From IMG/VR virus record IMGVR_UViG_2609459833_000001: a stretch of 29,412 nucleotides of DNA, one strand, 5' to 3'. Shown piece by piece: positions 1 through 22,214 of the stretch. A model generated the notes under the pieces. The model searched no databases. It saw only the letters and a list, made by a program, of their open reading frames with translations, and was not told where the DNA came from. The stretch is from a virus (taxonomy: Duplodnaviria; Heunggongvirae; Uroviricota; Caudoviricetes). Position 1 is the first letter of the stretch, and each line of letters starts with the position of its first letter. The position numbers and the translations under genes are program-made.

Positions 1-705
1 ATGGGCGCTGCTTCGCAGACAGGCAGAACTTGATGGTATGCCTGCGATCAATGCCAAACGTGTTTACCGGATCATGCGCCAGAATGCGCTGTTGCTTGAG
101 CGAAAACCTGCTGTACCGCCATCGAAACGGGCACATACAGGCAGAGTGGCTGTGAAAGAAAGTAATCAGCGATGGTGCTCTGACGGGTTCGAGTTCCGCT
201 GTGATAACGGAGAAAAACTGCGAGTCACGTTCGCGCTGGACTGCTGTGACCGTGAGGCACTGCACTGGGCGGTCACTACGGGCGGCTTCAACAGTGAAAC
301 AGTACAGGACGTCATGCTGGGAGCGGTGGAACGCCGCTTCGGCAACGAGCTTCCGGCGTCTCCAGTAGAGTGGCTGACGGATAATGGTTCATGCTACCGG
401 GCTAATGAAACACGGCAGTTTGCCCGGATGTTGGGGCTTGAACCGAAGAGCACGGCGGTGCGGAGTCCGGAGAGTAACGGCATAGCAGAGAGCTTCGTGA
501 AAACGATAAAGCGTGACTACATCAGTGTCATGCCCAAACCAGACGGGTTAACGGCAGCAAAGAACCTTGCAGAGGCGTTCGAGCATTATAACGAATGGCA
601 TCCGCATAGTGCACTGGGTTATCGCTCGCCACGGGAATATCTACGGCAGCAAGCCAGTAATGGGTTAAGTGATAACAGGTGTCTGGAAATATAGGGGCAA
701 ATCCA
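1..705 (+). mobile_element. IS2 (IS3 family) partial copy: right-hand 705 bp including the terminal inverted repeat (...GGGGCAAATCCA ends at 705); element continues beyond window start
   Basis: Encoded protein matches IS2 OrfB/InsD as I recall it; terminus sequence TGGATTTGCCCCTATATTTCCAGACA (read inward) matches the IS2 right inverted repeat; sequence identity with the other window end stops exactly at 705. Confidence 0.9.
2..694 (+). CDS. insD: IS2 transposase OrfB/InsD, C-terminal portion (5' end lies outside the window)
   Basis: Frame from position 2 reads [31 protein letters not shown]...SDNRCLEI, the C-terminal part of IS2 InsD including the DDE integrase core; ORF track 38..694 is its internal-Met version. 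Confidence 0.9.
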
Positions 706-1031
706 AAGACATCATGCTCGGTAAAACGTATACCAAAGCAGAATGCAAAGCCCTCCTGAATAAAGACCTTACCACGGTCGCCAGACAAATTAACCCGTAC
801 ATCAAAGTCGATATACCGGAAACAATGCGCGGCGCTCTTTACTCATTCGTTTACAACGTGGGTGCTGGCAATTTCAGAACATCGACGCTTCTTCGCAAAA
901 TAAACCAGGGCGATATCAAAGGCGCATGTGATCAGCTACGTCGCTGGACATATGCTGGCGGTAAGCAATGGAAAGGTCTCATGACTCGTCGTGAGATTGA
1001 GCGTGAAATCTGTTTGTGGGGTCAGCAATGA
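706..1031 (+). pseudogene. Phage endolysin, T4-type lysozyme (GH24; DLP12 RrrD-like), 5'-truncated by the IS2 insertion
   Basis: Translation from the IS2 junction ([22 protein letters not shown]...[13 protein letters not shown]) matches the C-terminal ~108 aa of the ~165-aa RrrD-type lysozyme; the N-terminal ~57 aa with the catalytic residues are absent here. The first 12 codons of ORF 669..1031 are IS2-derived. Confidence 0.8.
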
Positions 1032-1485
1032 ACAGAGTAACCGCGATTATCTCCGCTCTGGTTATCTGCATCATCGTCTGCCTGTCATGGGCTGTTAATC
1101 ATTACCGTGATAACGCCATTACCTACAAAGCCCAGCGCGACAAAAATGCCAGAGAACTGAAGCTGGCGAACGCGGCAATTACTGACATGCAGATGCGTCA
1201 GCGTGATGTTGCTGCGCTCGATGCAAAATACACGAAGGAGTTAGCTGATGCGAAAGCTGAAAATGATGCTCTGCGTGATGATGTTGCCGCTGGTCGTCGT
1301 CGGTTGCACATCAAAGCAGTCAGTCAGTGCGTGAAGCCACCACCGCCTCCGGCGTGGATAATGCAGCCTCCCCCCGACTGGCAGACACCGCTGAACGGGA
1401 TTATTTCACCCTCAGAGAGAGGCTGATCACTATGCAAAAACAACTGGAAGGAACCCAGAAGTATATTAATGAGCAGTGCAGATAG
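1028..1485 (+). pseudogene. Rz: i-spanin Rz, frameshifted (4-bp deletion relative to lambda Rz near 1320)
   Basis: N-terminal 100 aa ([44 protein letters not shown]...RRRLHIKAV) match lambda Rz; the Rz C-terminal peptide [30 protein letters not shown] is present in another frame ending at TAG 1483-1485. Span 1028..1485 is 458 nt; lambda Rz (153 aa + stop) needs 462 nt. ATGA overlap with the endolysin stop. Confidence 0.8.
1248..1426 (+). pseudogene. Rz1: o-spanin Rz1 (embedded lipoprotein), disrupted by the same 4-bp deletion
   Basis: AAGGAG RBS at 1235-1240, ATG at 1248. Lipoprotein N-terminus [27 protein letters not shown] then a stop at 1332-1334; the proline-rich Rz1 C-terminus ([32 protein letters not shown]) is in the frame of ORF 1016..1426, fused to the Rz N-terminus. 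Confidence 0.7.
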
Positions 1486-2168: not shown

Positions 2169-2363
2169 TTATTCATCATCACTTTGGATTGATGTATATG
2201 CTCTCTTTTCTGACGTTAGTCTCCGACGGCAGGCTTCAATGACCCAGGCTGAGAAATTCCCAGACCCTTTTTGCTCAAGAGCGATGTTAATTTGTTCAAT
2301 CATTTGGTTAGGAAAGCGGATGTTGCGGGTTGTTGTTCTGCGGGTTCTGTTCTTCGTTGACAT
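2169..2363 (-). CDS. Small hypothetical protein, possible ribbon-helix-helix DNA-binding fold
   Basis: 64-aa ORF; a short basic strand (RNIRFP) followed by two predicted helices (NQMIEQINIALEQ / NFSAWVIEACRRRL) resembles Arc/CopG-type RHH proteins. Only a weak RBS; function inferred. Confidence 0.4.
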   Translation of the reverse strand: MSTKNRTRRTTTRNIRFPNQMIEQINIALEQKGSGNFSAWVIEACRRRLTSEKRAYTSIQSDDE

Positions 2364-2519: not shown

Positions 2520-2740
2520 ATTATCATTTTTCGGGTCCTTTCCGGCGATCCGACAGGTTACGGGGCGGCGACCTCGCGGGTTTTCGCTATTTATGAAAAT
2601 TTTCCGGTTTAAGGCATTTCCGTTCTTCTTCGTCGTAACTTAATGTTTTTATTTAAAATACCCCCTGAAAAGAAAGGAAACGACAGGTGCTGAAAACGAG
2701 CTTTTGGGCCTCTGTCGTTTCCTTTCTCTGTTTTTGGCCG
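2520..2740. other. cos: cos DNA-packaging site (cosQ-cosN-cosB); cosN 12-nt cohesive end GGGCGGCGACCT at 2563-2574
   Basis: Sequence GGGCGGCGACCTCGCGGGTTTTCGCTATTTATGAAAATTTTCCGG matches the lambda left end. Downstream inverted copies of GGAAACGACAG (2683-2696 and 2713-2725) match terminase-binding R elements of cosB, immediately upstream of Nu1. Confidence 0.85.
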
Positions 2741-2751
2741 TGGAATGAACA

Positions 2752-3271
2752 ATGGAAGTCAACAAAAAGCAGCTGGCTGACATTTTCGGTGCGAGTATCC
2801 GTACCATTCAGAACTGGCAGGAACAGGGAATGCCCGTTCTGCGAGGCGGTGGCAAGGGTAATGAGGTGCTTTATGACTCTGCCGCCGTTATAAGATGGTA
2901 TGCCGAAAGGGATGCTGAAATTGAGAACGAAAAGCTGCGCCGGGAAGTTGAAGAACTGCGGCAGGCCAGCGAGACAGATCTCCAGCCAGGGACTATTGAG
3001 TACGAACGCCATCGACTTACGCGTGCGCAGGCCGACGCACAGGAGCTGAAAAATGCCAGAGACTCCGCTGAAGTGGTGGAAACCGCATTCTGTACTTTCG
3101 TGCTGTCGCGGATCGCAGGTGAAATTGCCAGTATTCTCGACGGGATCCCCCTGTCGGTGCAGCGGCGTTTTCCGGAACTGGAAAACCGACATGTTGATTT
3201 CCTGAAACGGGATATCATCAAAGCCATGAACAAAGCAGCCGCGCTGGATGAACTGATACCGGGGTTGCTGA

Positions 3272-3297
<26 letters not shown>
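2752..3297 (+). CDS. Nu1: Terminase small subunit
   Basis: 181 aa, MEVNKKQLADIFGASIRTIQNWQEQGMPVL..., matches lambda Nu1; N-terminal winged-HTH; position directly after cosB. Confidence 0.95.
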
Positions 3298-6978
<3,681 letters not shown>

Positions 6979-6998
<20 letters not shown>

Positions 6999-8298
6999 TC
7001 TCCCGCATATTGCCAGCATGGCTTTTAATGAGCCGCTGATGCTTGAACCCGCCTATGCGCGGGTTTTCTTTTGTGCGCTTGCAGGCCAGCTTGGGATCAG
7101 CCGCCTGACGGATGCGGTGTCCGGCGACAGCCTGACTGCCCAGGAGGCACTCGCGACGCTGGCATTATCCGGTGATGATGACGGACCACGACAGGCCCGC
7201 AGTTATCAGGTCATGAACGGCATCGCCGTGCTGCCGGTGTCCGGCACGCTGGTCAGCCGGACGCGGGCGCTGCAGCCGTACTCGGGGATGACCGGTTACA
7301 ACGGCATTATCGCCCGTCTGCAACAGGCTGCCAGCGATCCGATGGTGGACGGCATTCTGCTCGATATGGACACGCCCGGCGGGATGGTGGCGGGGGCATT
7401 TGACTGCGCTGACATCATCGCCCGTGTGCGTGACATAAAACCGGTATGGGCGCTGGCCAACGACATGAACTGCAGTGCAGGTCAGCTGCTTGCCAGTGCC
7501 GCCTCCCGGCGTCTGGTCACGCAGACCGCCCGGACAGGCTCCATCGGCGTCATGATGGCTCACAGTAATTACGGTGCTGCGCTGGAGAAACAGGGTGTGG
7601 AAATCACTCTGATTTACAGCGGCAGCCATAAGGTGGATGGCAACCCCTACAGCCATCTTCCGGATGACGTCCGGGAGACACTGCAGTCCCGGATGGACGC
7701 AACCCGCCAGATGTTTGCGCAGAAGGTGTCGGCATATACCGGCCTGTCCGTGCAGGCTGTGCTGGATACCGAGGCTGCAGTGTACAGCGGTCAGGAGGCC
7801 ATTGATGCCGGACTGGCTGATGAACTTGTTAACAGCACCGATGCGATCACCGTCATGCGTGATGCACTGGATGCACGTAAATCCCGTCTCTCAGGAGGGC
7901 GAATGACCAAAGAGACTCAATCAACAACTGTTTCAGCCACTGCTTCGCAGGCTGACGTTACTGACGTGGTGCCAGCGACGGAGGGCGAAAACGCCAGCGC
8001 GGCGCAGCCGGACGTGAACGCGCAGATCACCGCAGCGGTTGCGGCAGAAAACAGCCGCATTATGGGGATCCTCAACTGTGAGGAGGCTCACGGACGCGAA
8101 GAACAGGCACGCGTGCTGGCAGAAACCCCCGGTATGACCGTGGAAACGGCCCGCCGCATTCTGGCCGCAGCACCACAGAGTGCACAGGCGCGCAGTGACA
8201 CTGCGCTGGATCGTCTGATGCAGGGGGCACCGGCACCGCTGGCTGCAGGTAACCCGGCATCTGATGCCGTTAACGATTTGCTGAACACACCAGTGTAA
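6979..8298 (+). CDS. C: Head maturation protease / scaffold-fusion protein C (GTG start)
   Basis: 439 aa from GTG 6979 (VTAELRNLPHIASMAFNEPLML...), matches lambda gpC; ORF track 6844..8298 is the longer upstream-extended frame. Confidence 0.9.
7693..8298 (+). CDS. Nu3: Scaffolding protein Nu3 (in-frame internal start within C)
   Basis: ATG at 7693 is in frame with C (MDATRQMFAQKV...); corresponds to lambda Nu3 by position and sequence. Confidence 0.7.
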   Translation: MDATRQMFAQKVSAYTGLSVQAVLDTEAAVYSGQEAIDAGLADELVNSTDAITVMRDALDARKSRLSGGRMTKETQSTTVSATASQADVTDVVPATEGENASAAQPDVNAQITAAVAAENSRIMGILNCEEAHGREEQARVLAETPGMTVETARRILAAAPQSAQARSDTALDRLMQGAPAPLAAGNPASDAVNDLLNTPV

Positions 8299-8307
8299 GG
8301 GATGTTT

Positions 8308-8640
8308 ATGACGAGCAAAGAAACCTTTACCCATTACCAGCCGCTGGGCAACAGTGACCCGGCTCATACCGCAACCGCGCCCGGCGGATTGAGTGCGAAA
8401 GCGCCTGCAATGACCCCGCTGATGCTGGACACCTCCAGCCGTAAGCTGGTTGCGTGGGATGGCACCACCGACGGTGCTGCCGTTGGCATTCTTGCGGTTG
8501 CTGCTGACCAGACCAGCACCACGCTGACGTTCTACAAGTCCGGCACGTTCCGTTATGAGGATGTGCTCTGGCCGGAGGCTGCCAGCGACGAGACGAAAAA
8601 ACGGACCGCGTTTGCCGGAACGGCAATCAGCATCGTTTAA
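8308..8640 (+). CDS. D: Head decoration protein D
   Basis: 110 aa [27 protein letters not shown]..., matches lambda gpD. Confidence 0.93.
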
Positions 8641-8660
8641 CTTTACCCTTCATCACTAAA

Positions 8661-8686
8661 GGCCGCCTGTGCGGCTTTTTTTACGG
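8661..8686 (+). terminator. Weak stem-loop plus T-tract between D and E (possible attenuator)
   Basis: GCCGC-CTGT-GCGGC stem followed by TTTTTTT; short stem, so probably partial termination at most. Confidence 0.35.
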
Positions 8687-8695
8687 GATTTTTTT

Positions 8696-9721
8696 ATGTC
8701 GATGTACACAACCGCCCAACTGCTGGCGGCAAATGAGCAGAAATTTAAGTTTGATCCGCTGTTTCTGCGTCTCTTTTTCCGTGAGAGCTATCCCTTCACC
8801 ACGGAGAAAGTCTATCTCTCACAAATTCCGGGACTGGTAAACATGGCGCTGTACGTTTCGCCGATTGTTTCCGGTGAGGTTATCCGTTCCCGTGGCGGCT
8901 CCACCTCTGAATTTACGCCGGGATATGTCAAGCCGAAGCATGAAGTGAATCCGCAGATGACCCTGCGTCGCCTGCCGGATGAAGATCCGCAGAATCTGGC
9001 GGACCCGGCTTACCGCCGCCGTCGCATCATCATGCAGAACATGCGTGACGAAGAGCTGGCCATTGCTCAGGTCGAAGAGATGCAGGCAGTTTCTGCCGTG
9101 CTTAAGGGCAAATACACCATGACCGGTGAAGCCTTCGATCCGGTTGAGGTGGATATGGGCCGCAGTGAGGAGAATAACATCACGCAGTCCGGCGGCACGG
9201 AGTGGAGCAAGCGTGACAAGTCCACGTATGACCCGACCGACGATATCGAAGCCTACGCGCTGAACGCCAGCGGTGTGGTGAATATCATCGTGTTCGATCC
9301 GAAAGGCTGGGCGCTGTTCCGTTCCTTCAAAGCCGTCAGGGAGAAGCTGGATACCCGTCGTGGCTCTAATTCCGAGCTGGAGACAGCGGTGAAAGACCTG
9401 GGCAAAGCGGTGTCCTATAAGGGGATGTATGGCGATGTGGCCATCGTCGTGTATTCCGGACAGTACGTGGAAAACGGCGTCAAAAAGAACTTCCTGCCGG
9501 ACAACACGATGGTGCTGGGGAACACTCAGGCACGCGGTCTGCGCACCTATGGCTGCATTCAGGATGCGGACGCACAGCGCGAAGGCATTAACGCCTCTGC
9601 CCGTTACCCGAAAAACTGGGTGACCACCGGCGATCCGGCGCGTGAGTTCACCATGATTCAGTCAGCACCGCTGATGCTGCTGGCTGACCCTGATGAGTTC
9701 GTGTCCGTACAACTGGCGTAA
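8696..9721 (+). CDS. E: Major capsid protein E
   Basis: 341 aa MSMYTTAQLLAANEQKFKFDPLFL..., matches lambda gpE. Confidence 0.95.
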   Translation: MSMYTTAQLLAANEQKFKFDPLFLRLFFRESYPFTTEKVYLSQIPGLVNMALYVSPIVSGEVIRSRGGSTSEFTPGYVKPKHEVNPQMTLRRLPDEDPQNLADPAYRRRRIIMQNMRDEELAIAQVEEMQAVSAVLKGKYTMTGEAFDPVEVDMGRSEENNITQSGGTEWSKRDKSTYDPTDDIEAYALNASGVVNIIVFDPKGWALFRSFKAVREKLDTRRGSNSELETAVKDLGKAVSYKGMYGDVAIVVYSGQYVENGVKKNFLPDNTMVLGNTQARGLRTYGCIQDADAQREGINASARYPKNWVTTGDPAREFTMIQSAPLMLLADPDEFVSVQLA

Positions 9722-9762
9722 TCATGGCCCTTCGGGGCCATTGTTTCTCTGTGGAGGAGTCC

Positions 9763-10161
9763 ATGACGAAAGATGAACTGATTGCCCGTCTCCGCTCGCT
9801 GGGTGAACAACTGAACCGTGATGTCAGCCTGACGGGGACGAAAGAAGAACTGGCGCTCCGTGTGGCAGAGCTGGAAGAGGAGCTTGATGACACGGATGAA
9901 ACTGCCGGTCAGGACATCCCTCTCAGCCGGGAAAATGTGCTGACCGGACATGAAAATGAGGTGGGATCAGCGCAGCCGGATACCGTGATTCTGGATACGT
10001 CTGAACTGGTCACGGTCGTGGCACTGGTGAAGCTGCATACTGATGCACTTCACGCCACGCGGGATGAACCTGTGGCATTTGTGCTGCCGGGAACGGCGTT
10101 TCGTGTCTCTGCCGGTGTGGCAGCCGAAATGACAGAGCGCGGCCTGGCCAGAATGCAATAA
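9763..10161 (+). CDS. FI: DNA-packaging protein FI
   Basis: 132 aa MTKDELIARLRSLGEQLNRDVSL..., matches lambda gpFI; GGAGGA RBS upstream. Confidence 0.93.
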   Translation: MTKDELIARLRSLGEQLNRDVSLTGTKEELALRVAELEEELDDTDETAGQDIPLSRENVLTGHENEVGSAQPDTVILDTSELVTVVALVKLHTDALHATRDEPVAFVLPGTAFRVSAGVAAEMTERGLARMQ

Positions 10162-10172
10162 CGGGAGGCGCT

Positions 10173-10526
10173 GTGGCTGATTTCGATAACCTGTTCGATG
10201 CTGCCATTGCCCGCGCCGATGAAACGATACGCGGGTACATGGGAACGTCAGCCACCATGACATCCGGTGAGCAGTCAGGTGCGGTGATACGTGGTGTTTT
10301 TGATGACCCTGAAAATATCAGCTATGCCGGACAGGGCGTGCGCGTTGAAGGCTCCAGCCCGTCCCTGTTTGTCCGGACTGATGAGGTGCGGCAGCTGCGG
10401 CGTGGAGACACGCTGACCATCGGTGAGGAAAATTTCTGGGTAGATCGGGTTTCGCCGGATGATGGCGGAAGTTGTCATCTCTGGCTTGGACGGGGCGTAC
10501 CGCCTGCCGTTAACCGTCGCCGCTGA
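10173..10526 (+). CDS. FII: Head-tail connector protein FII
   Basis: 117 aa MADFDNLFDAAIARADETIRGYMG..., matches lambda gpFII. Confidence 0.93.
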   Translation: MADFDNLFDAAIARADETIRGYMGTSATMTSGEQSGAVIRGVFDDPENISYAGQGVRVEGSSPSLFVRTDEVRQLRRGDTLTIGEENFWVDRVSPDDGGSCHLWLGRGVPPAVNRRR

Positions 10527-10537
10527 AAGGGGGATGT

Positions 10538-11116
10538 ATGGCCATAAAAGGTCTTGAGCAGGCCGTTGAAAACCTCAGCCGTATCAGCAAAACGGCGGTG
10601 CCTGGTGCCGCCGCAATGGCCATTAACCGCGTTGCTTCATCCGCGATATCGCAGTCGGCGTCACAAGTTGCCCGTGAGACAAAGGTACGCCGGAAACTGG
10701 TAAAGGAAAGGGCCAGGCTGAAAAGGGCCACGGTCAAAAATCCGCAGGCCAGAATCAAAGTTAACCGGGGGGATTTGCCCGTAATCAAGCTGGGTAATGC
10801 GCGGGTTGTCCTTTCGCGCCGCAGGCGTCGTAAAAAGGGGCAGCGTTCATCCCTGAAAGGTGGCGGCAGCGTGCTTGTGGTGGGTAACCGTCGTATTCCC
10901 GGCGCGTTTATTCAGCAACTGAAAAATGGCCGGTGGCATGTCATGCAGCGTGTGGCCGGGAAAAACCGTTACCCCATTGATGTGGTGAAAATCCCGATGG
11001 CGGTGCCGCTGACCACGGCGTTTAAACAAAATATTGAGCGGATACGGCGTGAACGTCTTCCGAAAGAGCTGGGCTATGCGCTGCAGCATCAACTGAGGAT
11101 GGTAATAAAGCGATGA
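10538..11116 (+). CDS. Z: Tail completion protein Z
   Basis: 192 aa MAIKGLEQAVENLSRISKTAVPG..., matches lambda gpZ. Confidence 0.93.
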   Translation: MAIKGLEQAVENLSRISKTAVPGAAAMAINRVASSAISQSASQVARETKVRRKLVKERARLKRATVKNPQARIKVNRGDLPVIKLGNARVVLSRRRRRKKGQRSSLKGGGSVLVVGNRRIPGAFIQQLKNGRWHVMQRVAGKNRYPIDVVKIPMAVPLTTAFKQNIERIRRERLPKELGYALQHQLRMVIKR

Positions 11117-11508
11117 AACATACTGAACTCCGTGCAGCCGTACTGGATGCACTGGAGAAGCATGACACCGGGGCGACGTTTTTTGATGGTCGCCCCGCTG
11201 TTTTTGATGAGGCGGATTTTCCGGCAGTTGCCGTTTATCTCACCGGCGCTGAATACACGGGCGAAGAGCTGGACAGCGATACCTGGCAGGCGGAGCTGCA
11301 TATCGAAGTTTTCCTGCCTGCTCAGGTGCCGGATTCAGAGCTGGATGCGTGGATGGAGTCCCGGATTTATCCGGTGATGAGCGATATCCCGGCACTGTCA
11401 GATTTGATCACCAGTATGGTGGCCAGCGGCTATGACTACCGGCGCGACGATGATGCGGGCCTGTGGAGTTCAGCCGATCTGACTTATGTCATTACCTATG
11501 AAATGTGA
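11113..11508 (+). CDS. U: Tail terminator protein U
   Basis: 131 aa [24 protein letters not shown]..., matches lambda gpU; ATGA overlap with Z. Confidence 0.93.
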
Positions 11509-11515
11509 GGACGCT

Positions 11516-12256
11516 ATGCCTGTACCAAATCCTACAATGCCGGTGAAAGGTGCCGGGACCACCCTGTGGGTTTATAAGGGGAGCGGTGACCCTTATGCGA
11601 ATCCGCTTTCAGACGTTGACTGGTCGCGTCTGGCAAAAGTTAAAGACCTGACGCCCGGCGAACTGACCGCTGAGTCCTATGACGACAGCTATCTCGATGA
11701 TGAAGATGCAGACTGGACTGCGACCGGGCAGGGGCAGAAATCTGCCGGAGATACCAGCTTCACGCTGGCGTGGATGCCCGGAGAGCAGGGGCAGCAGGCG
11801 CTGCTGGCGTGGTTTAATGAAGGCGATACCCGTGCCTATAAAATCCGCTTCCCGAACGGCACGGTCGATGTGTTCCGTGGCTGGGTCAGCAGTATCGGTA
11901 AGGCGGTGACGGCGAAGGAAGTGATCACCCGCACGGTGAAAGTCACCAATGTGGGACGTCCGTCGATGGCAGAAGATCGCAGCACGGTAACAGCGGCAAC
12001 CGGCATGACCGTGACGCCTGCCAGCACCTCGGTGGTGAAAGGGCAGAGCACCACGCTGACCGTGGCCTTCCAGCCGGAGGGCGTAACCGACAAGAGCTTT
12101 CGTGCGGTGTCTGCGGATAAAACAAAAGCCACCGTGTCGGTCAGTGGTATGACCATCACCGTGAACGGCGTTGCTGCAGGCAAGGTCAACATTCCGGTTG
12201 TATCCGGTAATGGTGAGTTTGCTGCGGTTGCAGAAATTACCGTCACCGCCAGTTAA
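11516..12256 (+). CDS. V: Major tail tube protein V
   Basis: 246 aa from ATG 11516 ([22 protein letters not shown]...), GAGGA RBS; C-terminal Ig-like domain; matches lambda gpV. Confidence 0.93.
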
Positions 12257-12271
12257 TCCGGAGAGTCAGCG

Positions 12272-12694
12272 ATGTTCCTGAAAACCGAATCATTTGAACA
12301 TAACGGTGTGACCGTCACGCTTTCTGAACTGTCAGCCCTGCAGCGCATTGAGCATCTCGCCCTGATGAAACGGCAGGCAGAACAGGCGGAGTCAGACAGC
12401 AACCGGAAGTTTACTGTGGAAGACGCCATCAGAACCGGCGCGTTTCTGGTGGCGATGTCCCTGTGGCATAACCATCCGCAGAAGACGCAGATGCCGTCCA
12501 TGAATGAAGCCGTTAAACAGATTGAGCAGGAAGTGCTTACCACCTGGCCCACGGAGGCAATTTCTCATGCTGAAAACGTGGTGTACCGGCTGTCTGGTAT
12601 GTATGAGTTTGTGGTGAATGATGCCCCTGAACAGGCAGAGGACGCCGGGCCTGCAGAGCCTGTTTCTGCGGGAAAGTGTTCGACGGTGAGCTGA
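12272..12694 (+). CDS. G: Tail assembly chaperone G
   Basis: 140 aa MFLKTESFEHNGVTVTLSELSALQR..., matches lambda gpG. Confidence 0.93.
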   Translation: MFLKTESFEHNGVTVTLSELSALQRIEHLALMKRQAEQAESDSNRKFTVEDAIRTGAFLVAMSLWHNHPQKTQMPSMNEAVKQIEQEVLTTWPTEAISHAENVVYRLSGMYEFVVNDAPEQAEDAGPAEPVSAGKCSTVS

Positions 12695-13110
12695 GTTTTG
12701 CCCTGAAACTGGCGCGCGAGATGGGGCGACCCGACTGGCGTGCCATGCTTGCCGGGATGTCATCCACGGAGTATGCCGACTGGCACCGCTTTTACAGTAC
12801 CCATTATTTTCATGATGTTCTGCTGGATATGCACTTTTCCGGGCTGACGTACACCGTGCTCAGCCTGTTTTTCAGCGATCCGGATATGCATCCGCTGGAT
12901 TTCAGTCTGCTGAACCGGCGCGAGGCTGACGAAGAGCCTGAAGATGATGTGCTGATGCAGAAAGCGGCAGGGCTTGCCGGAGGCGTTCGTTTTGGCCCGG
13001 ACGGGAATGAAGTTATCCCCGCTTCCCCGGATGTGGCGGACATGACGGAGGATGACGTAATGCTGATGACAGTATCAGAAGGGATCGCAGGAGGAGTCCG
13101 GTATGGCTGA
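12272..13110 (+). CDS. T: Tail assembly chaperone G-T fusion made by programmed -1 ribosomal frameshift (slippery heptamer G GGA AAG at 12670-12676)
   Basis: The T frame (12676..13110, MFDGELSFALKLAREMGRPDW...) has no RBS of its own and overlaps the G 3' end in the -1 frame; slippery site GGGAAAG sits in the G zero frame, as in lambda. Confidence 0.85.
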
Positions 13111-15664
13111 ACCGGTAGGCGATCTGGTCGTTGATTTAAGTCTGGATGCGGCCAGATTTGACGAGCAGATGGCCAGAGTCAGGCGTCATTTTTCCGGTAC
13201 GGAAACTGATGCGAAAAAAACAGCGGCAGTCGTTGAACAGTCGCTGAGCCGACAGGCGCTGGCTGCACAGAAAGCGGGGATTTCCGTCGGGCAGTATAAA
13301 GCCGCCATGCGTATGCTGCCTGCACAGTTCACCGACGTGGCCACGCAGCTTGCAGGCGGGCAAAGTCCGTGGCTGATCCTGCTGCAACAGGGTGGTCAGG
13401 TTAAGGACTCCTTCGGCGGGATGATCCCCATGTTCAGGGGGCTTGCCGGTGCGATCACCCTGCCGATGGTGGGGGCCACCTCGCTGGCGGTGGCGACCGG
13501 TGCGCTGGCGTATGCCTGGTATCAGGGCAACTCAACCCTGTCCGATTTCAACAAAACGCTGGTCCTTTCCGGCAATCAGGCGGGACTGACGGCAGATCGT
13601 ATTCTGGCCCTGTCCAGAGCCGGGCAGGCGGCAGGGCTGACGTTTAACCAGACCAGCGAGTCACTCAGCGCACTGGTTAAGGCGGGGGTAAGCGGTGAGG
13701 CTCAGATTGCGTCCATCAGCCAGAGTGTGGCGCGTTTCTCCTCTGCATCCGGCGTGGAGGTGGACAAGGTCGCTGAAGCCTTCGGGAAGCTGACCACAGA
13801 CCCGACGTCGGGGCTGACGGCGATGGCACGCCAGTTCCATAACGTGACGGCGGAGCAGATTGCGTATGTTGCTCAGTTGCAGCGTTCCGGCGATGAAGCC
13901 GGGGCATTGCAGGCGGCGAACGAGGCCGCAACGAAAGGGTTTGATGACCAGACCCGCCGCCTGAAAGAGAACATGGGCACGCTGGAGACCTGGGCAGACA
14001 GGACAGCACGGGCATTCAAATCCATGTGGGATGCGGTGCTGGATATTGGTCGTCCTGATACCGCGCAGGAGATGCTGATTAAGGCAGAGGCTGCGTTTAA
14101 GAAAGCAGACGACATCTGGAATCTGCGCAAGGATGATTATTTTGTTAACGATGAAGCGCGGGCGCGTTACTGGGATGATCGTGAAAAGGCCCGTCTTGCG
14201 CTTGAAGCCGCCCGAAAGAAGGCTGAGCAGCAGACTCAACAGGACAAAAATGCGCAGCAGCAGAGCGATACCGAAGCGTCACGGCTGAAATATACCGAAG
14301 AGGCGCAGAAGGCTTACGAACGGCTGCAGACGCCGCTGGAGAAATATACCGCCCGTCAGGAAGAACTGAACAAGGCACTGAAAGACGGGAAAATCCTGCA
14401 GGCGGATTACAACACGCTGATGGCGGCGGCGAAAAAGGATTATGAAGCGACGCTGAAAAAGCCGAAACAGTCCGGCGTGAAGGTGTCTGCGGGCGATCGT
14501 CAGGAAGACAGTGCTCATGCTGCCCTGCTGACGCTTCAGGCAGAACTCCGGACGCTGGAGAAGCATGCCGGAGCAAATGAGAAAATCAGCCAGCAGCGCC
14601 GGGATTTGTGGAAGGCGGAGAGTCAGTTCGCGGTACTGGAGGAGGCGGCGCAACGTCGCCAGCTGTCTGCACAGGAGAAATCCCTGCTGGCGCATAAAGA
14701 TGAGACGCTGGAGTACAAACGCCAGCTGGCTGCACTTGGCGACAAGGTTACGTATCAGGAGCGCCTGAACGCGCTGGCGCAGCAGGCGGATAAATTCGCA
14801 CAGCAGCAACGGGCAAAACGGGCCGCCATTGATGCGAAAAGCCGGGGGCTGACTGACCGGCAGGCAGAACGGGAAGCCACGGAACAGCGCCTGAAGGAAC
14901 AGTATGGCGATAATCCGCTGGCGCTGAATAACGTCATGTCAGAGCAGAAAAAGACCTGGGCGGCTGAAGACCAGCTTCGCGGGAGCTGGATGGCAGGCCT
15001 CAGGTCAGGCTGGAGTGAGTGGGAAGAGAGCGCCACGGACAGTATGTCGCAGGTAAAAAGTGCAGCCACGCAGACCTTTGATGGTATTGCACAGAATATG
15101 GCGGCGATGCTGACCGGCAGTGAGCAGAACTGGCGCAGCTTCACCCGTTCCGTGCTGTCCATGATGACAGAAATTCTGCTTAAGCAGGCAATGGTGGGGA
15201 TTGTCGGGAGTATCGGCAGCGCCATTGGCGGGGCTGTTGGTGGCGGCGCATCCGCGTCAGGCGGTACAGCCATTCAGGCCGCTGCGGCGAAATTCCATTT
15301 TGCAACCGGAGGATTTACGGGAACCGGCGGCAAATATGAGCCAGCGGGGATTGTTCACCGTGGTGAGTTTGTCTTCACGAAGGAGGCAACCAGCCGGATT
15401 GGCGTGGGGAATCTTTACCGGCTGATGCGCGGCTATGCCACCGGCGGTTATGTCGGTACACCGGGCAGCATGGCAGACAGCCGGTCGCAGGCGTCCGGGA
15501 CGTTTGAGCAGAATAACCATGTGGTGATTAACAACGACGGCACGAACGGGCAGATAGGTCCGGCTGCTCTGAAGGCGGTGTATGACATGGCCCGCAAGGG
15601 TGCCCGTGATGAAATTCAGACACAGATGCGTGATGGTGGCCTGTTCTCCGGAGGTGGACGATGA
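13103..15664 (+). CDS. H: Tail tape-measure protein H
   Basis: 853 aa, long coiled-coil central region, matches lambda gpH. Confidence 0.95.
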   Translation: MAEPVGDLVVDLSLDAARFDEQMARVRRHFSGTETDAKKTAAVVEQSLSRQALAAQKAGISVGQYKAAMRMLPAQFTDVATQLAGGQSPWLILLQQGGQVKDSFGGMIPMFRGLAGAITLPMVGATSLAVATGALAYAWYQGNSTLSDFNKTLVLSGNQAGLTADRILALSRAGQAAGLTFNQTSESLSALVKAGVSGEAQIASISQSVARFSSASGVEVDKVAEAFGKLTTDPTSGLTAMARQFHNVTAEQIAYVAQLQRSGDEAGALQAANEAATKGFDDQTRRLKENMGTLETWADRTARAFKSMWDAVLDIGRPDTAQEMLIKAEAAFKKADDIWNLRKDDYFVNDEARARYWDDREKARLALEAARKKAEQQTQQDKNAQQQSDTEASRLKYTEEAQKAYERLQTPLEKYTARQEELNKALKDGKILQADYNTLMAAAKKDYEATLKKPKQSGVKVSAGDRQEDSAHAALLTLQAELRTLEKHAGANEKISQQRRDLWKAESQFAVLEEAAQRRQLSAQEKSLLAHKDETLEYKRQLAALGDKVTYQERLNALAQQADKFAQQQRAKRAAIDAKSRGLTDRQAEREATEQRLKEQYGDNPLALNNVMSEQKKTWAAEDQLRGSWMAGLRSGWSEWEESATDSMSQVKSAATQTFDGIAQNMAAMLTGSEQNWRSFTRSVLSMMTEILLKQAMVGIVGSIGSAIGGAVGGGASASGGTAIQAAAAKFHFATGGFTGTGGKYEPAGIVHRGEFVFTKEATSRIGVGNLYRLMRGYATGGYVGTPGSMADSRSQASGTFEQNNHVVINNDGTNGQIGPAALKAVYDMARKGARDEIQTQMRDGGLFSGGGR

Positions 15665-15990
15665 AGACCTTCCGCTGGAAAGTGAAACCCGGTATGGATG
15701 TGGCTTCGGCCCCTTCTGTAAGAAAGGTGCGCTTTGGTGATGGCTATTCTCAGCGAGCGCCTGCCGGGCTGAATGCCAACCTGAAAACGTACAGCGTGAC
15801 GCTTTCTGTCCCCCGTGAGGAGGCCACGGTACTGGAGTCGTTTCTGGAAGAGCACGGGGGCTGGAAAGCCTTTCTGTGGACGCCGCCTTATGAGTGGCGG
15901 CAGATAAAGGTGACCTGCGCAAAATGGTCGTCGCGGGTCAGTATGCTGCGTGTTGAGTTCAGCGCAGAGTTTGAACAGGTGGTGAACTGA
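15661..15990 (+). CDS. M: Tail tip assembly protein M
   Basis: 109 aa MKTFRWKVKPGMDVASAPSVRKV..., matches lambda gpM. Confidence 0.93.
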   Translation: MKTFRWKVKPGMDVASAPSVRKVRFGDGYSQRAPAGLNANLKTYSVTLSVPREEATVLESFLEEHGGWKAFLWTPPYEWRQIKVTCAKWSSRVSMLRVEFSAEFEQVVN

Positions 15991-16688
15991 TGCAGGATAT
16001 CCGGCAGGAAACACTGAATGAATGCACCCGTGCGGAGCAGTCGGCCAGCGTGGTGCTCTGGGAAATCGACCTGACAGAGGTCGGTGGAGAACGTTATTTT
16101 TTCTGTAATGAGCAGAACGAAAAAGGTGAGCCGGTCACCTGGCAGGGGCGACAGTATCAGCCGTATCCCATTCAGGGGAGTGGTTTTGAACTGAATGGCA
16201 AAGGCACCAGTACGCGCCCCACACTGACGGTTTCTAACCTGTACGGTATGGTCATCGGGATGGCGGAAGATCTGCAGAGTCTGGTCGGTGGAACGGTGGT
16301 CCGGCGTAAGGTTTACGCCCGTTTTCTGGATGCGGTGAACTTCGTCAACGGAAACAGTGGCGCCGATCCGGAGCAGGAGGTGATCAGCCGCTGGCGCATT
16401 GAGCAGTGCAGCGAACTGAGCGCGGTGAGTGCCTCTTTTGTACTGTCCACGCCGACGGAAACGGACGGTGCTGTTTTTCCGGGACGTATCATGCTGGCCA
16501 ACACCTGCACCTGGACCTATCGCGGTGATGAGTGCGGTTATCACGGTCCGGCAGTCGCGGATGAATATGACCAGCCAACGTCCGATATCACGAAGGATAA
16601 ATGCAGCAAATGCCTGAGCGGTTGTAAGTTCCGCAATAACGTCGGCAACTTTGGCGGCTTCCTTTCCATTAACAAACTTTCGCAGTAA
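15990..16688 (+). CDS. L: Tail tip protein L
   Basis: 232 aa MQDIRQETLNECTRAEQSASVVLWEIDL..., matches lambda gpL; C-terminal Cys cluster present. Confidence 0.93.
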   Translation: MQDIRQETLNECTRAEQSASVVLWEIDLTEVGGERYFFCNEQNEKGEPVTWQGRQYQPYPIQGSGFELNGKGTSTRPTLTVSNLYGMVIGMAEDLQSLVGGTVVRRKVYARFLDAVNFVNGNSGADPEQEVISRWRIEQCSELSAVSASFVLSTPTETDGAVFPGRIMLANTCTWTYRGDECGYHGPAVADEYDQPTSDITKDKCSKCLSGCKFRNNVGNFGGFLSINKLSQ

Positions 16689-16693
16689 ATCCC

Positions 16694-17437
16694 ATGACAC
16701 AGACAGAATCAGCGATTCTGGCGCACGCCCGGCGATGTGCGCCAGCGGAGTCGTGCGGCTTCGTGGTAAGCACGCCGGAGGGGGAAAGATATTTTCCCGG
16801 CGTGAATATTTCCGGTGAGCCGGAGGATTATTTCCGGATGGCTCCGGAGGACTGGCTGCAGGCAGAAATGCAGGGTGAGATTGTGGCGCTGGTCCACAGC
16901 CACCCCGGTGGTCTGCCCTGGCTGAGTGAGGCTGACCGGCGGCTGCAGGTGCAGAGTGATTTGCCGTGGTGGCTGGTCTGCCGGGGGGCGATTCATAAGT
17001 TCCGCTGTGTGCCGCATCTCACCGGGCGGCGCTTTGAGCACGGGGTGACGGACTGTTACACGCTGTTCCGGGATGCTTATCATCTGGCGGGGATTGAGAT
17101 GCCGGATTTTCATCGCGGGGATGACTGGTGGCGTCACGGTCAGAATCTCTATCTGGATAATCTGGAGGCCACAGGGCTGTATCAGGTGCCGTTGTCAGCG
17201 GCGCAGCCGGGCGATGTGCTGCTGTGCTGTTTTGGTTCATCGGTGCCGAATCATGCCGCCATTTACTGTGGTGACGGTGAGCTGCTGCACCATATTCCTG
17301 AACAACTGAGCAAACGAGAGAGGTACACCGACAAATGGCAGCGACGCACACACTCCCTCTGGCGTCACCGGGCATGGCGCGCATCTGCCTTTACGGGGAT
17401 TTACAACGATTTGGTCGCCGCATCGACCTTCGTGTGA
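16694..17437 (+). CDS. K: Tail tip assembly protein K (MPN/JAMM-like motif HSHPGG...SEAD plus NlpC/P60-like C-terminal region)
   Basis: 247-aa continuous ORF starting 6 nt after the L stop. The part from MAPEDWLQAEMQGEIVALVHSHPGG onward matches lambda gpK; the N-terminal 48 aa are an in-frame extension relative to the 199-aa K I remember for lambda. Confidence 0.85.
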   Translation: MTQTESAILAHARRCAPAESCGFVVSTPEGERYFPGVNISGEPEDYFRMAPEDWLQAEMQGEIVALVHSHPGGLPWLSEADRRLQVQSDLPWWLVCRGAIHKFRCVPHLTGRRFEHGVTDCYTLFRDAYHLAGIEMPDFHRGDDWWRHGQNLYLDNLEATGLYQVPLSAAQPGDVLLCCFGSSVPNHAAIYCGDGELLHHIPEQLSKRERYTDKWQRRTHSLWRHRAWRASAFTGIYNDLVAASTFV

Positions 17438-18006
17438 AAACGGGGGCTGAAGCCATCCGGGCACTGGCCACACAGCTCCCGGCGTTTCGTCAGAAACTGA
17501 GCGACGGCTGGTATCAGGTACGGATTGCCGGGCGGGACGTCAGCACGTCCGGGTTAACGGCGCAGTTACATGAGACTCTGCCTGATGGCGCTGTGATTCA
17601 TATTGTTCCCAGAGTCGCCGGGGCCAAGTCAGGTGGCGTATTCCAGATTGTCCTGGGGGCTGCCGCCATTGCCGGATCATTCTTTACCGCCGGAGCCACC
17701 CTTGCAGCATGGGGGGCAGCCATTGGGGCCGGTGGTATGACCGGCATCCTGTTTTCTCTCGGTGCCAGTATGGTGCTCGGTGGTGTGGCGCAGATGCTGG
17801 CACCGAAAGCCAGAACTCCCCGTACACAGACAACGGATAACGGTAAGCAGAACACCTATTTCTCCTCACTGGATAACATGGTTGCCCAGGGCAATGTTCT
17901 GCCTGTTCTGTACGGGGAAATGCGCGTGGGGTCACGCGTGGTTTCTCAGGAGATCAGCACGGCAGACGAAGGGGACGGTGGTCAGGTTGTGGTGATTGGT
18001 CGCTGA
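17335..18006 (+). CDS. I: Tail tip assembly protein I
   Basis: 223 aa MAATHTLPLASPGMARICLYGDLQRF..., matches lambda gpI; overlaps the K 3' end. Confidence 0.93.
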   Translation: MAATHTLPLASPGMARICLYGDLQRFGRRIDLRVKTGAEAIRALATQLPAFRQKLSDGWYQVRIAGRDVSTSGLTAQLHETLPDGAVIHIVPRVAGAKSGGVFQIVLGAAAIAGSFFTAGATLAAWGAAIGAGGMTGILFSLGASMVLGGVAQMLAPKARTPRTQTTDNGKQNTYFSSLDNMVAQGNVLPVLYGEMRVGSRVVSQEISTADEGDGGQVVVIGR

Positions 18007-18066
18007 TGCAAAATGTTTTATGTGAAACCGCCTGCGGGCGGTTTTGTCATTTATGGAGCGTGAGGA

Positions 18067-21000
18067 ATGAGTAAAGGAAGCAGTAAGGGGCATACCCCGC
18101 GCGAAGCGAAGGACAACCTGAAGTCCACGCAGCTGCTGAGTGTGATCGATGCCATCAGCGAAGGGCCGGTTGAAGGTCCGGTGGATGGATTAAAAAGCGT
18201 GCTGCTGAACAGTACGCCGGTGCTGGACACTGAGGGGAATACCAACATCTCCGGTGTCACGGTGGTGTTCCGTGCCGGTGAGCAGGAGCAGACACCGCCG
18301 GAGGGGTTTGAATCCTCCGGCTCCGAGACGGTGTTGGGTACGGAAGTGAAATACGACACGCCGATCACCCGCGCCATCACGTCGGCAAACATCGACCGAC
18401 TGCGCTTTACCTTCGGTGTGCAGGCACTGGTGGAAACCACCTCAAAGGGGGACCGGAATCCGTCGGAAGTTCGCCTGCTGGTTCAGATACAGCGTAATGG
18501 TGGCTGGGTGACGGAAAAAGATATCACCATTAAGGGCAAAACCACCTCGCAGTATCTGGCCTCGGTGGTGGTGGATAACCTGCCGCCGCGCCCGTTTAAT
18601 ATCCGGATGCGCAGAATGACGCCGGACAGCACCACAGACCAGCTGCAGAACAAAACGCTCTGGTCGTCATACACCGAAATCATCGATGTGAAACAGTGCT
18701 ACCCGAACACGGCACTGGTCGGCGTGCAGGTGGATTCGGAGCAGTTCGGCAGCCAGCAGGTGAGCCGTAATTATCATCTTCGCGGGCGCATTCTGCAGGT
18801 GCCGTCGAATTATAACCCGCAGACGCGGCAATACAGCGGTATCTGGGACGGAACGTTAAAACCGGCATACAGCAACAACATGGCCTGGTGTCTGTGGGAT
18901 ATGCTGACCCACCCGCGCTACGGCATGGGGAAACGTCTTGGTGCGGCAGATGTGGATAAATGGGCGCTGTATGTCATCGGCCAGAATTGCGACCAGTCGG
19001 TGCCGGACGGCTTTGGCGGTACGGAGCCGCGCATCACCTGTAACGCTTACCTGACCACACAACGTAAGGCGTGGGATGTGCTCAGTGATTTCTGCTCGGC
19101 GATGCGCTGTATGCCGGTATGGAACGGGCAGACGCTGACGTTCGTGCAGGACCGACCGTCGGATAAGGTGTGGACCTATAACCGCAGTAATGTGGTGATG
19201 CCGGATGATGGCGCGCCGTTCCGCTACAGCTTCAGCGCCCTGAAAGACCGCCATAATGCCGTTGAGGTGAACTGGATTGACCCGGATAACGGCTGGGAGA
19301 CGGCAACAGAGCTTGTGGAGGACTCGCAGGCCATTGCCCGTTACGGTCGTAACGTCACGAAGATGGATGCCTTTGGCTGTACCAGCCGGGGGCAGGCACA
19401 CCGCGCCGGGCTGTGGCTGATTAAAACGGAGCTGCTGGAAACGCAGACGGTGGACTTCAGCGTGGGTGCCGAAGGGCTTCGCCATGTGCCGGGCGATGTC
19501 ATTGAAATCTGTGATGATGACTATGCCGGTATCAGCACCGGCGGGCGCGTGCTGGCGGTAAACAGTCAGACCCGGACGCTGACGCTCGACCGTGAAATCA
19601 CGCTGCCATCCTCCGGTACCACGCTGATAAGCCTGGTTGACGGAAGTGGCAATCCGGTCAGCGTGGAGGTTCAGTCCGTCACCGACGGCGTGAAGGTGAA
19701 AGTGAGCCGGGTTCCTGACGGCGTTGCTGAATACAGCGTGTGGGGGCTGAAGCTGCCGACGCTGCGCCAGCGCCTGTTCCGCTGCGTGAGTATCCGTGAG
19801 AACGACGACGGCACGTATGCCATCACCGCCGTGCAGCATGTACCGGAAAAAGAAGCCATCGTGGATAACGGGGCGCACTTTGACGGCGACCAGAGCGGCA
19901 CGGTGAATGGTGTCACGCCGCCAGCGGTGCAGCACCTGACTGCCGAAGTCACCGCAGACAGTGGGGAATACCAGGTGCTGGCCCGCTGGGACACGCCGAA
20001 GGTGGTGAAGGGCGTGAGTTTCATGCTTCGCCTGACCGTGGCAGCGGATGACGGCAGTGAGCGGCTGGTCAGCACGGCCCGGACGGCGGAAACCACATAC
20101 CGCTTCACGCAACTGGCGCCAGGGAACTACAGGCTGACAGTCCGGGCGGTAAATGCGTGGGGGCAGCAGGGCGATCCGGCGTCGGTATCGTTCCGGATTG
20201 CCGCATCGGCAGCACCGTCGAGGATTGAGCTGACGCCGGGCTATTTTCAGATAACCGCCACGCCGCATCTTGCCGTTTATGACCCGACGGTACAGTTTGA
20301 GTTCTGGTTCTCGGAAAAGCGGATTACCGATATCAGGCAGGTTGAAACCACAGCCCGCTATCTTGGTACGGCGCTGTACTGGATAGCCGCCAGTATCAAT
20401 ATCAAACCGGGCCATGATTATTACTTTTATATCCGCAGTGTGAACACCGTTGGCAAATCGGCATTCGTGGAGGCCGTCGGTCGGGCGAGCGATGATGCGG
20501 AAGGTTACCTGGATTTTTTCAAAGGCAAGATAACCGAATCCCATCTCGGTAAAGAGCTGCTGGAAAAAGTTGATCTGACGGAGGATAACGCCAGCAGACT
20601 GGATGAGTTTTCGAAAGAGTGGAAGGACGCTAACGATAAATGGAATGCCATGTGGGGCGTCAAAATTGAGCAGACCAAAGACGGCAAACATTATGTCGCG
20701 GGTATTGGCCTCAGCATGGAGGACACGGAGGAAGGCAAGCTGAGCCAGTTTCTGGTTGCCGCTAACCGTATCGCGTTTATTGACCCGGCAAACGGGAATG
20801 AAACGCCGATGTTTGTGGCGCAGGGCAACCAGATATTCATGAACGACGTGTTCCTGAAGCGCCTGACAGCCCCCACCATTACCAGCGGTGGCAGTCCTCC
20901 GGTATTTTCCCTGACATCAGACGGAAAGCTGACCGCTAAAAATGCGGATATCAGTGGTAGTGTGAATGCGAACTCAGGAACGCTCAACAATGTCACGATT

Positions 21001-21480
21001 AACCAGAACTGTACGATTAAGGGCATGCTGGAGGCGACTCAGGTCAGAGGTGACTTCGTTAAAGCTGTATCCAAATCATTTCCGAAACAGGCTGGTACGT
21101 GGGGTAACACGGAAACACCAAACGGGACGGTTACAGTCACCATCAGCGATGATCATAACTTTGACCGTCAAATCATTATTCCGCCCATTATCTTTAACGG
21201 AATAGCGTATAGCGATCCGGGAAGTGGTAATAACCCGGGAGGTACAAGATACACGGGTTATGGTTTTGAAGTTCGCAAAAACGGTGTATTAATCGCATCC
21301 AGAGAAACTAAAGGGGCCATTCCCGGTAGCTACAGTGCGGTTATTGATATGCCGAGTGGCAGGGGAAGCGTCACTCTGGAGTTTAAGGTTTTCCATAAAG
21401 GCAATCAGCGGGCAGGTAATATCACCGACTGTACGGTGATTGTGACCAAAAAAGCGGCTTCAGGCATCAGTATTCGTTGA
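18067..21480 (+). CDS. J: Central tail fibre / host-specificity protein J, with divergent C-terminal receptor-binding module
   Basis: 1137 aa; N-terminal ~980 aa match lambda gpJ ([31 protein letters not shown]...); the last ~150 aa differ from lambda J as I recall it and the DNA is visibly AT-richer from about 21000. Confidence 0.9.
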
Positions 21481-21502
21481 AATATTTATAACCCCAATAA
21501 AT

Positions 21503-21526
21503 GGCGTCAGGAATGACGCCTTTTTT
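21503..21526 (+). terminator. Rho-independent terminator downstream of J
   Basis: GGCGTCA-GGAA-TGACGCC hairpin followed by TTTTTT. Confidence 0.7.
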
Positions 21527-21550
21527 ATTGCAGAAAAGCGAGAGGTAATT

Positions 21551-22150
21551 ATGCGTAAAGTTTGTGCAGCCATTTTGTCCGCAGCCATTTGTCTGGCCGT
21601 ATCCGGTGCGCCTGCATGGGCGTCTGAACATCAGTCCACGCTGAGCGCGGGGTATCTTCATGCCCGGACCAACGTTCCCGGCAGTGATGATCTGAACGGG
21701 ATTAACGTGAAATACCGTTATGAGTTTACGGATACGCTGGGGCTGGTGACGTCATTCAGCTATGCAGGAGACAAGAATCGCCAGCTGACCCATTACAGCG
21801 ATACCCGCTGGCATGAAGATTCCGTTCGTAACCGCTGGTTCAGCGTAATGGCGGGGCCGTCTGTGCGCGTGAATGAATGGTTCAGCGCGTATGCGATGGC
21901 GGGTGTGGCTTACAGCCGTGTGTCGACTTTCTCCGGGGATTATCTCCGCGTAACTGACAACAAGGGGAAAACGCACGACGTGCTGACCGGAAGTGATGAC
22001 GGTCGCCACAGCAACACGTCTCTGGCGTGGGGAGCTGGCGTGCAGTTTAACCCGACCGAATCCGTGGCCATTGATATTGCTTATGAAGGCTCCGGCAGCG
22101 GTGACTGGCGTACCAACAGTTTCATCGTGGGTGTCGGTTATAAATTCTGA
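21551..22150 (+). CDS. lom: Lom-family outer-membrane beta-barrel protein (Ail/PagC/OmpX family)
   Basis: 199 aa with signal peptide MRKVCAAILSAAICLAVSGAPAWA; C-terminal half (...SVMAGP...AYAMAGVA...DIAYEGSGSGDWRTNSFIVGVGYKF) matches lambda Lom, N-terminal half is divergent. Confidence 0.88.
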   Translation: MRKVCAAILSAAICLAVSGAPAWASEHQSTLSAGYLHARTNVPGSDDLNGINVKYRYEFTDTLGLVTSFSYAGDKNRQLTHYSDTRWHEDSVRNRWFSVMAGPSVRVNEWFSAYAMAGVAYSRVSTFSGDYLRVTDNKGKTHDVLTGSDDGRHSNTSLAWGAGVQFNPTESVAIDIAYEGSGSGDWRTNSFIVGVGYKF

Positions 22151-22176
22151 TTAGCCAGGTAACACAGTGTTATGAC

Positions 22177-22203
22177 AGCCCGCCGGTTCAGGCGGGCTTT
22201 TTT
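22177..22203 (+). terminator. Rho-independent terminator downstream of lom
   Basis: AGCCCGCC-GGTTCA-GGCGGGCT hairpin followed by TTTTT. Confidence 0.75.
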
Positions 22204-22214
22204 GTGGGGTGAAT

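Follow-up and report, generated by a model that had tools for sequence, protein, structure and literature searches.

IS2 insertion in the endolysin gene and a frameshift in the spanin genes of a lambda-like Escherichia coli prophage with a phage-21-type lysis cassette

The lysis cassettes of phage 21 (S21, R21 and Rz/Rz1) and of the cryptic prophage DLP12 of Escherichia coli K-12 (essD-rrrD-rzpD/rzoD) share one gene order: a holin gene, a lysozyme gene, Rz with Rz1 nested in it, and bor. DLP12 has lost its virion genes and has kept its lysis genes intact. The insertion sequence (IS) IS2 is known from simple insertions, among them polar ones in the gal operon and non-random ones in phage P1. 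Here, we describe a prophage in which IS2 lies in the endolysin gene of such a cassette. The DNA analyzed (hereafter, the window; IMG/VR record IMGVR_UViG_2609459833_000001) is the entire 29,412-bp contig JNRV01000053.1 of the draft assembly GCA_000704865.1, and its proteins are deposited under Escherichia coli 3-073-06_S1_C2. The cassette consists of the pinholin S21/EssD, the signal-arrest-release (SAR) endolysin R21/RrrD, and the spanins Rz/Rz1, and has been hit twice independently. We consider it highly probable that the endolysin and both spanins of this lambda-like prophage are disabled by these two lesions, and that the prophage is otherwise complete.

IS2 insertion in the endolysin gene

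A complete 1331-bp IS2, that of strain S1-CAM-02-A, served as the reference, and the first 705 bases of the window are identical to its last 705 nt. Frame 2–694 holds the C-terminal 230 codons of the orfB/InsD transposase (stop at 692–694) and encodes the rve and rve_3 integrase-core domains (Pfam), and the right terminal repeat ends with ...GGGGCAAATCCA at 694–705. In other complete genomes, the same sequence is annotated as “IS3-like element IS2 family transposase” (RefSeq). The left edge of the window is a contig end inside the IS2 repeat and is no biological boundary. From position 706, the window follows intact rrrD collinearly, starting at nt 173 of that gene. Bases 708–1028 encode residues D59–Q165, i.e., 107 amino acids (aa), followed by a stop at 1029–1031, and this fragment matches PF00959 (E = 8e-34) over profile positions 29–125 of 125.

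The 5' half of the gene was found on a second contig of the same assembly, JNRV01000104.1 (hereafter, L005). Directly after the intact pinholin gene, a stub of 59 aa ends in GKD and is closed by the TAG that begins IS2; a protein with exactly the sequence predicted for this stub is deposited for the same strain. The left copy of AAGAC is at L005 10173–10177, directly before the left end of IS2 (from 10178), so that ...GGAAAAGAC is followed by TAGACTGGCCCC at the left junction, and GGGGCAAATCCA is followed by AAGACATCATG at the right junction in the window. Both terminal sequences of IS2 were thus found, the left end (TAGACTGGCCCC...) on L005 and the right end (...GGGGCAAATCCA) in the window. 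The IS2 copy is assembled at its positions 1–364 on L005 and 627–1331 in the window, and both parts are 100% identical to the complete copy. Its insertion point is between codons 59 and 60 of the endolysin gene, with which it is co-oriented. Because AAGAC is present on both sides, IS2 entered the gene by simple transposition, duplicating these 5 bp.

An initial annotation, made from the letters of the window alone, had placed an IS2 terminus at 705 against the middle of a T4-type lysozyme gene, with about 108 aa of the C-terminal part remaining, and had suggested looking beyond the window for the 5' half and a 5-bp duplication. The exact match to the IS2 right end bears out the terminus, the missing half and the duplication are both on JNRV01000104.1, and the remnant has 107 aa. 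The interrupted gene does belong to the T4 lysozyme family (glycoside hydrolase family 24, PF00959), and is more precisely described as a SAR endolysin of the phage-21-R/RrrD type. The interruption itself is correct, and only “middle” was loose, since 59 of the 165 codons precede the break.

The window edge is a contig end in IS2 and both ends of the window carry the same 705 nt, i.e., the assembler met a repeat, and the IS2/lysozyme junction might on these grounds be taken for a chimeric join at that repeat. However, the reciprocal junction with the matching 5-bp duplication is on a second contig of the same assembly, the identical junction occurs in the assemblies of other isolates (L004, a contig of GCA_966564195.1, and L012, from GCA_002917695.1), and the 59-aa stub and a 105-aa fragment are both deposited for E. 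coli 3-073-06_S1_C2. An assembly artefact is essentially refuted by these results.

When IS2 and one copy of AAGAC were removed, a protein of 165 aa was restored. This protein is identical at 164 of 165 positions to PDB 3HDE (listed only as “Lysozyme”), which we take to be phage 21 R, and it matches PDB 4ZPU (RrrD) with E = 1.7e-110. The 1,176-bp essD-rrrD-Rz reconstruction differs from L002, the intact essD-rrrD-Rz cassette used for comparison, by only three substitutions and one 4-bp deletion. The catalytic triad of these lysozymes has the motif E-X8-D-X5-T (PMC9239132). In the reconstructed protein, it corresponds to E35, D44, and T50, all upstream of the break; the triad is not in the window fragment and sits on the separated 59-aa stub, in agreement with the earlier statement that the catalytic N-terminal part is missing from this junction. 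The Gly/Ala-rich, weakly hydrophobic N-terminal SAR domain, identical to that of the 3HDE chain, is also on the stub and is now detached from the remainder of the enzyme. The stub keeps the SAR anchor and E35/D44/T50 and loses two thirds of the fold, and the downstream piece is left without a start signal, an export signal, or catalytic residues. Since the triad and the SAR anchor are both on the 59-aa stub, neither fragment should work. In comparable complete genomes, split lysozyme genes are marked as incomplete pseudogenes (RefSeq).

Spanin genes, pinholin gene, and the expected course of induction

The second lesion is in the spanin genes and was judged against two intact cassettes. Both of these have GCAGTCTGTCAGTCAG where the window has GCAGTCAGTCAG, and the 4 bp that are missing are one unit of an imperfect GTCT-GTCA-GTCA tract, a loss such as replication slippage would produce. 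Because Rz1 is nested in Rz, one deletion shifts both frames. The Rz frame breaks at codon 99, and PF03245 is no longer matched in one frame: the fused product matches its profile positions 1–73 of 126 and then PF06085 (positions 7–40 of 41), whereas positions 76–126 of PF03245 are in the orphaned 3' part. Rz1 meets a stop after 28 aa, compared with 60 aa in the intact gene, so that the start, the lipobox LVVVGC, and 8 mature residues remain, and its proline-rich part has become the tail of the Rz product. The deletion destroys the C-terminal half of the i-spanin and all but these 8 mature residues of the o-spanin. The same 4-bp deletion is present in the independently sequenced isolate L004, and the Rz/Rz1 frameshift reported in the initial annotation is real. 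We also considered the Rz-Rz1 fusion as a single-chain spanin. This candidate was rejected: the fusion has no lipoprotein anchor and therefore no outer-membrane attachment, and it lacks the C-terminal coiled coil of Rz.

The remainder of the cassette is outside the window. The gene order on L005 is repressor, O, P, ninE, rusA, Q, a porin gene, a holin gene of 71 aa, the endolysin stub, and the left end of IS2. The holin gene (L005 9786–10001) encodes a pinholin of 71 aa that is 100% identical to EssD of the intact cassette, matches PF04971, and is annotated as EssD. The genes for replication (O and P) and antitermination (Q) are called at full length. Once triggered, the phage 21 pinholin suffices to kill the cell (PMC9239132, PMC9636201). 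Because the pinholin gene is intact and its triggering is lethal alone, the phenotype expected on induction is death without bursting, not survival. The initial annotation had described the lysis module as disabled, a sound deduction from the split endolysin and the shifted spanins, and had taken the pattern to fit a prophage that “can no longer kill the host.” The latter view is not supported, since with the pinholin gene intact and O, P, and Q at full length, the opposite is predicted.

We propose the following course of events. On induction, the prophage would replicate, express its late genes, and assemble particles, and the Q-modified polymerase would be expected to read through IS2 into the late genes. 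Depolarization by the pinholin would then kill the cell; the wall would not be degraded, the membranes would not be fused, and the particles would remain trapped. Both lesions, the clean duplication, the intact pinholin gene, cos, and all of the virion genes were seen directly. Several points weigh against this account. The phenotype is read entirely from sequence, and other defects may lie outside the two contigs, at the integrase/attachment-site end. The read-through of IS2 by Q is assumed by analogy with N, which relieves IS polarity. Homologous recombination could have turned the 28-kb late block around, which would uncouple it from the late promoter, and an endolysin/spanin pair of another prophage in the genome could complement the defect in trans.

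In the case of such complementation, the lysis defect would be masked and particles would still be released. Several lambdoid prophages are common in E. coli genomes, and a 3.4-kb window query (tfa to the hydrolase gene) matches a median of 3 places per genome. On the other hand, both contigs assemble straight through the cassette, which, judging from the behavior of assemblers, argues against a second near-identical copy, and a helper prophage would need to be co-induced. We regard masking by a second prophage as rather unlikely, and prefer death of the host without bursting as the outcome of induction. The prophage is thus predicted not to release particles alone and yet to kill the induced cell, which bears on induction and transduction work with these isolates.

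Virion genes, the second IS2, and the age of the lesions

The deposited genome of phage PhiR26_1 served as the reference for the virion genes (Table 1). All 23 proteins from Nu1 to Tfa align with it end to end at 92–100% aa identity, and the alignments are gap-free except that of Stf, which has 9 gap positions. The DNA of the late region is 97.6% identical to that of PhiR26_1 over 98% of its length and 96.9% identical to that of mEp332 over 95%; mEp332 is a lambdoid phage of K-12 that has been studied by quantitative PCR (PMC3442831). The lambda cohesive-end sequence (cos) is matched exactly. This match is statistically weak, since 23 of 100 shuffled sequences match with at most one mismatch, but its location is as expected. 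The full-length virion genes and the exact cos dodecamer confirm what had been called intact-looking virion genes and cos.

Table 1. Positions of the lysis-gene remnants, IS2 copies, and other prophage features in the 29,412-bp window
Feature	Position	Strand	Basis or remark
Right-hand 705 nt of IS2 (IS2 positions 627–1331)	1..705	+	0 mismatches to 1331-bp IS2; rve and rve_3 domains
AAGAC, right copy of the 5-bp target-site duplication (rrrD nt 173–177)	706..710	+	Both junction sequences
3' fragment of phage-21-R/RrrD-type SAR endolysin gene (codons 59–165 and stop)	708..1031	+	Pfam, alignment, reconstruction
Frameshifted i-spanin gene, Rz residues 1–98 and last 34 residues of the Rz1 frame (132 aa)	1028..1426	+	Pfam
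Truncated o-spanin gene Rz1; signal peptide and lipobox Cys20 kept	1248..1334	+	Translation compared with intact Rz1 of L002
Site of the 4-bp deletion	1318..1321	+	Two intact cassettes; also in L004
Orphaned 3' part of Rz, residues 102–153, out of frame with the start codon	1327..1485	+	PF03245 profile positions 76–126
bor/iss lipoprotein gene, intact, 97 aa	1517..1810	-	
Lambda cohesive-end sequence (cos) GGGCGGCGACCT	2563..2574	+	Exact 12-nt match; just upstream of Nu1
Complete lambda-type gene block for packaging, heads, tails, and tail fibres: Nu1, A, W, B, C, D, E, FI, FII, Z, U, V, G, T, H, M, L, K, I, J, lom, stf, tfa	2752..25873	+	Full length
Second IS2, same right-hand 705 nt inverted, to contig end	28708..29412	-	Exact reverse complement of 1–705

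A second, inverted IS2, which the initial annotation had overlooked, is present at the other end of the contig. Its right end is at 28708–28719 (inverted), and it is inserted after ATGAC (28703–28707), 81 bp upstream of the start of an alpha/beta-hydrolase gene (28626, minus strand), in the spacer before an omptin gene. In relatives, the omptin gene is found just beyond the position of this IS2. The hydrolase and omptin genes are both part of the phage genome in PhiR26_1, and therefore both IS2 copies are within the prophage. The right ends of the two copies face inward and bound a unique segment of 28,002 bp. These identical, inward-facing ends could have mediated an inversion of the 28-kb block of the lysis-gene 3' parts and virion genes, on top of the insertion. 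Such an inversion would part rrrD-3', Rz, and the virion genes from the late promoter, and the prophage would be non-productive, not merely non-lytic. Draft contigs break in IS2 and so cannot show linkage across it. However, there is no positive evidence of an inversion, and the AAGAC duplication marks the original event as a simple insertion. We consider an inversion unlikely; it would in any case add to, and be compatible with, inactivation of the cassette by the two lesions.

The age of the lesions was assessed from their distribution. The contig L004 has 28,256 bp (127 + 28,002 + 127) and begins at window position 579. It has the same IS2/endolysin junction and the same Rz fusion, and its sequence marks it as an independent isolate because 4 of 10,848 positions differ from the window. 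The left junction is shared by L012, in which 3 of 7,033 positions differ from L005. The identical IS2::rrrD junction was found in none of the 5,426 complete E. coli genomes scanned, in which the nearest IS2 positions are 4 to 536 bp away from the window junction. Only a few draft isolates, nearly identical to one another (3–4 single-nucleotide polymorphisms per 7–11 kb), were found to carry the IS2::rrrD allele and the Rz deletion. From this pattern and from the 92–100% identity of the late proteins to those of a deposited phage, the lesions look like recent decay, and nothing indicates selective retention; such decay would have been neutral or mildly favored.

The initial annotation had also seen in the pattern a “domesticated or defective” prophage; domestication has no support, given the absence of the junction from the complete genomes and the restriction of the lesions to near-identical isolates. 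A domesticated prophage would be one whose virion and packaging genes the host retains under selection, with lysis disabled so that killing is avoided. All virion genes and cos are indeed intact while two lysis functions are broken, and the repeated occurrence of IS2 in this endolysin family elsewhere (see below) could reflect selection against lysis. However, the prophage retains an intact, lethal pinholin that does not differ from functional alleles, the lesions are too young for “retention” to mean anything, and the reuse of the same pentanucleotides in both orientations points to target preference of the transposase, not to selection. We therefore consider domestication very improbable, and regard the locus as a clean, fully resolved example of early prophage decay, in which two small lesions have struck lysis genes and the genome is otherwise of phage grade.

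A “59-aa lysozyme” partial protein has been widely deposited (60 index blocks; 24 contigs read). The possibility that most of these public fragments represent the same insertion was rejected, because 8 of the 10 loci retrieved are contigs that continue ...GACAT and then end within an intact rrrD, and only L005 and L012 carry IS2. The eight (L006–L011, L013, and L014) are unrelated draft contigs that stop at codon 59–60 of an intact rrrD. These stops are probably an assembly fork at a polymorphic site some bases downstream, at which the rrrD alleles of co-resident prophages diverge (ATCATGCTC vs. ATCATTCCC). Such contig-end fragments look like the stub truncated by IS2 and should be left out of any count of insertions.

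The following genes and repeats were also observed. A 64-aa gene of the YlcI/YnfO family (2169–2363, minus strand) is the only gene left in the interval from bor to cos (1860–2750), and ybcV and ybcW of PhiR26_1 had no tblastn match in this interval of the window. Between cos and Nu1 there is a 26-nt inverted repeat (2671–2696 and 2702–2727). An 87% direct repeat (25697–25828 and 26746–26877) marks a second, truncated tail-fibre-assembly gene (26653–26958), which is separated from tfa by a class I SAM-dependent methyltransferase gene (YbcY-like; 25928–26596, minus strand); this arrangement also occurs in PhiR26_1 and S1-CAM-02-A. Envelope-related or non-virion cargo comprises bor/iss, lom (21551–22150), and the alpha/beta hydrolase (27142–28626, minus strand), and further cargo is the porin gene between Q and the holin gene (L005 8115–9197, minus strand) and, in relatives, the omptin gene past the second IS2. 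In S1-CAM-02-A, a close relative, the prophage adjoins ompT-envY-ybcH-nfrA, which we take to be the neighborhood of DLP12 in K-12. The prophage looks like a full-length counterpart of DLP12.

Recurrence of IS2 in rrrD-type genes and comparison with known systems

The initial annotation had also overlooked that IS2 repeatedly enters this gene family. IS2 interrupts rrrD-type genes in a few dozen of the complete genomes: four junction queries returned 18, 10, 9, and 15 records at ≥ 80% query coverage, and these records overlap partly and include a few spurious or essD-upstream cases. We verified 16 other IS2 copies with perfect 5-bp duplications (loci L001, L016–L020, and L022–L031), which occupy 13 distinct sites in the 498-bp rrrD gene and one in Rz; the window site is the 14th in rrrD. 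Three targets, GTTAA (nt 69–73), GTAAC (89–93), and GTTGG (136–140), have received IS2 in either orientation, with different genomes and prophage backgrounds involved. The window site (nt 173–177) is in a tight cluster with 161–165, 167–171, and 169–173. The closest complete relative, S1-CAM-02-A (99.9% identity over the tfa-to-hydrolase region), carries an IS2 that entered rrrD independently, 37 bp upstream of the window site. Among the complete E. coli genomes, several IS2 insertions were found upstream of the holin gene and none inside it.

IS2-end-like sequences in rrrD were examined as an explanation for the hot spots. The best matches are the 8-mers ACTGGCCC (nt 76–83) and TTCCAGAC (minus strand, 98–105), and CCAGACA (248–254) is a further match to the IS2 terminus (L002 2905–2912, 2927–2934, and 3077–3083, respectively). 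This explanation was rejected for want of statistical support, because matches as long occurred in 175 of 300 shuffles. The matches are on or next to insertion sites (69–73/89–93, 98–102, and 248–252), a coincidence that may mean nothing.

Our literature search for IS2 together with rrrD, endolysin, or prophage lysis returned nothing relevant, and no description of an IS2 preference for this endolysin gene family was found in it. We suggest only tentatively, and with more doubt than conviction, that IS2 has a genuine hot target in the R21/RrrD-type SAR endolysin gene. Should this reflect the target choice of the transposase, perhaps reinforced by selection against a leaky Sec-exported endolysin, IS2 would systematically give rise to lambdoid prophages that can still make virions but have lost lysis, and the window would be one example of a rule and not an accident. 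Because IS2 recurs in rrrD-type genes, the insertion in the window is ordinary. The prophage is one more IS-inactivated lambdoid prophage, and only the repeated strikes of IS2 at the same pentanucleotides of this endolysin gene family are of wider interest.

Compared with the cassettes of phage 21 and DLP12, the one here has an endolysin gene divided by IS2 and a shift in both spanin frames. The pattern is the opposite of that in DLP12: the virion genes have been kept and the lysis genes are broken. With known IS2 insertions, the insertion shares the terminal sequences, the 5-bp duplication, the rve domain of the transposase, and the clustering at preferred targets; it differs in that a lambdoid endolysin gene is the target. 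IS-inactivated lambdoid prophages of E. coli and Shigella have the same kind of small lesions in a phage-like genome, and nothing essential distinguishes the present prophage from them.

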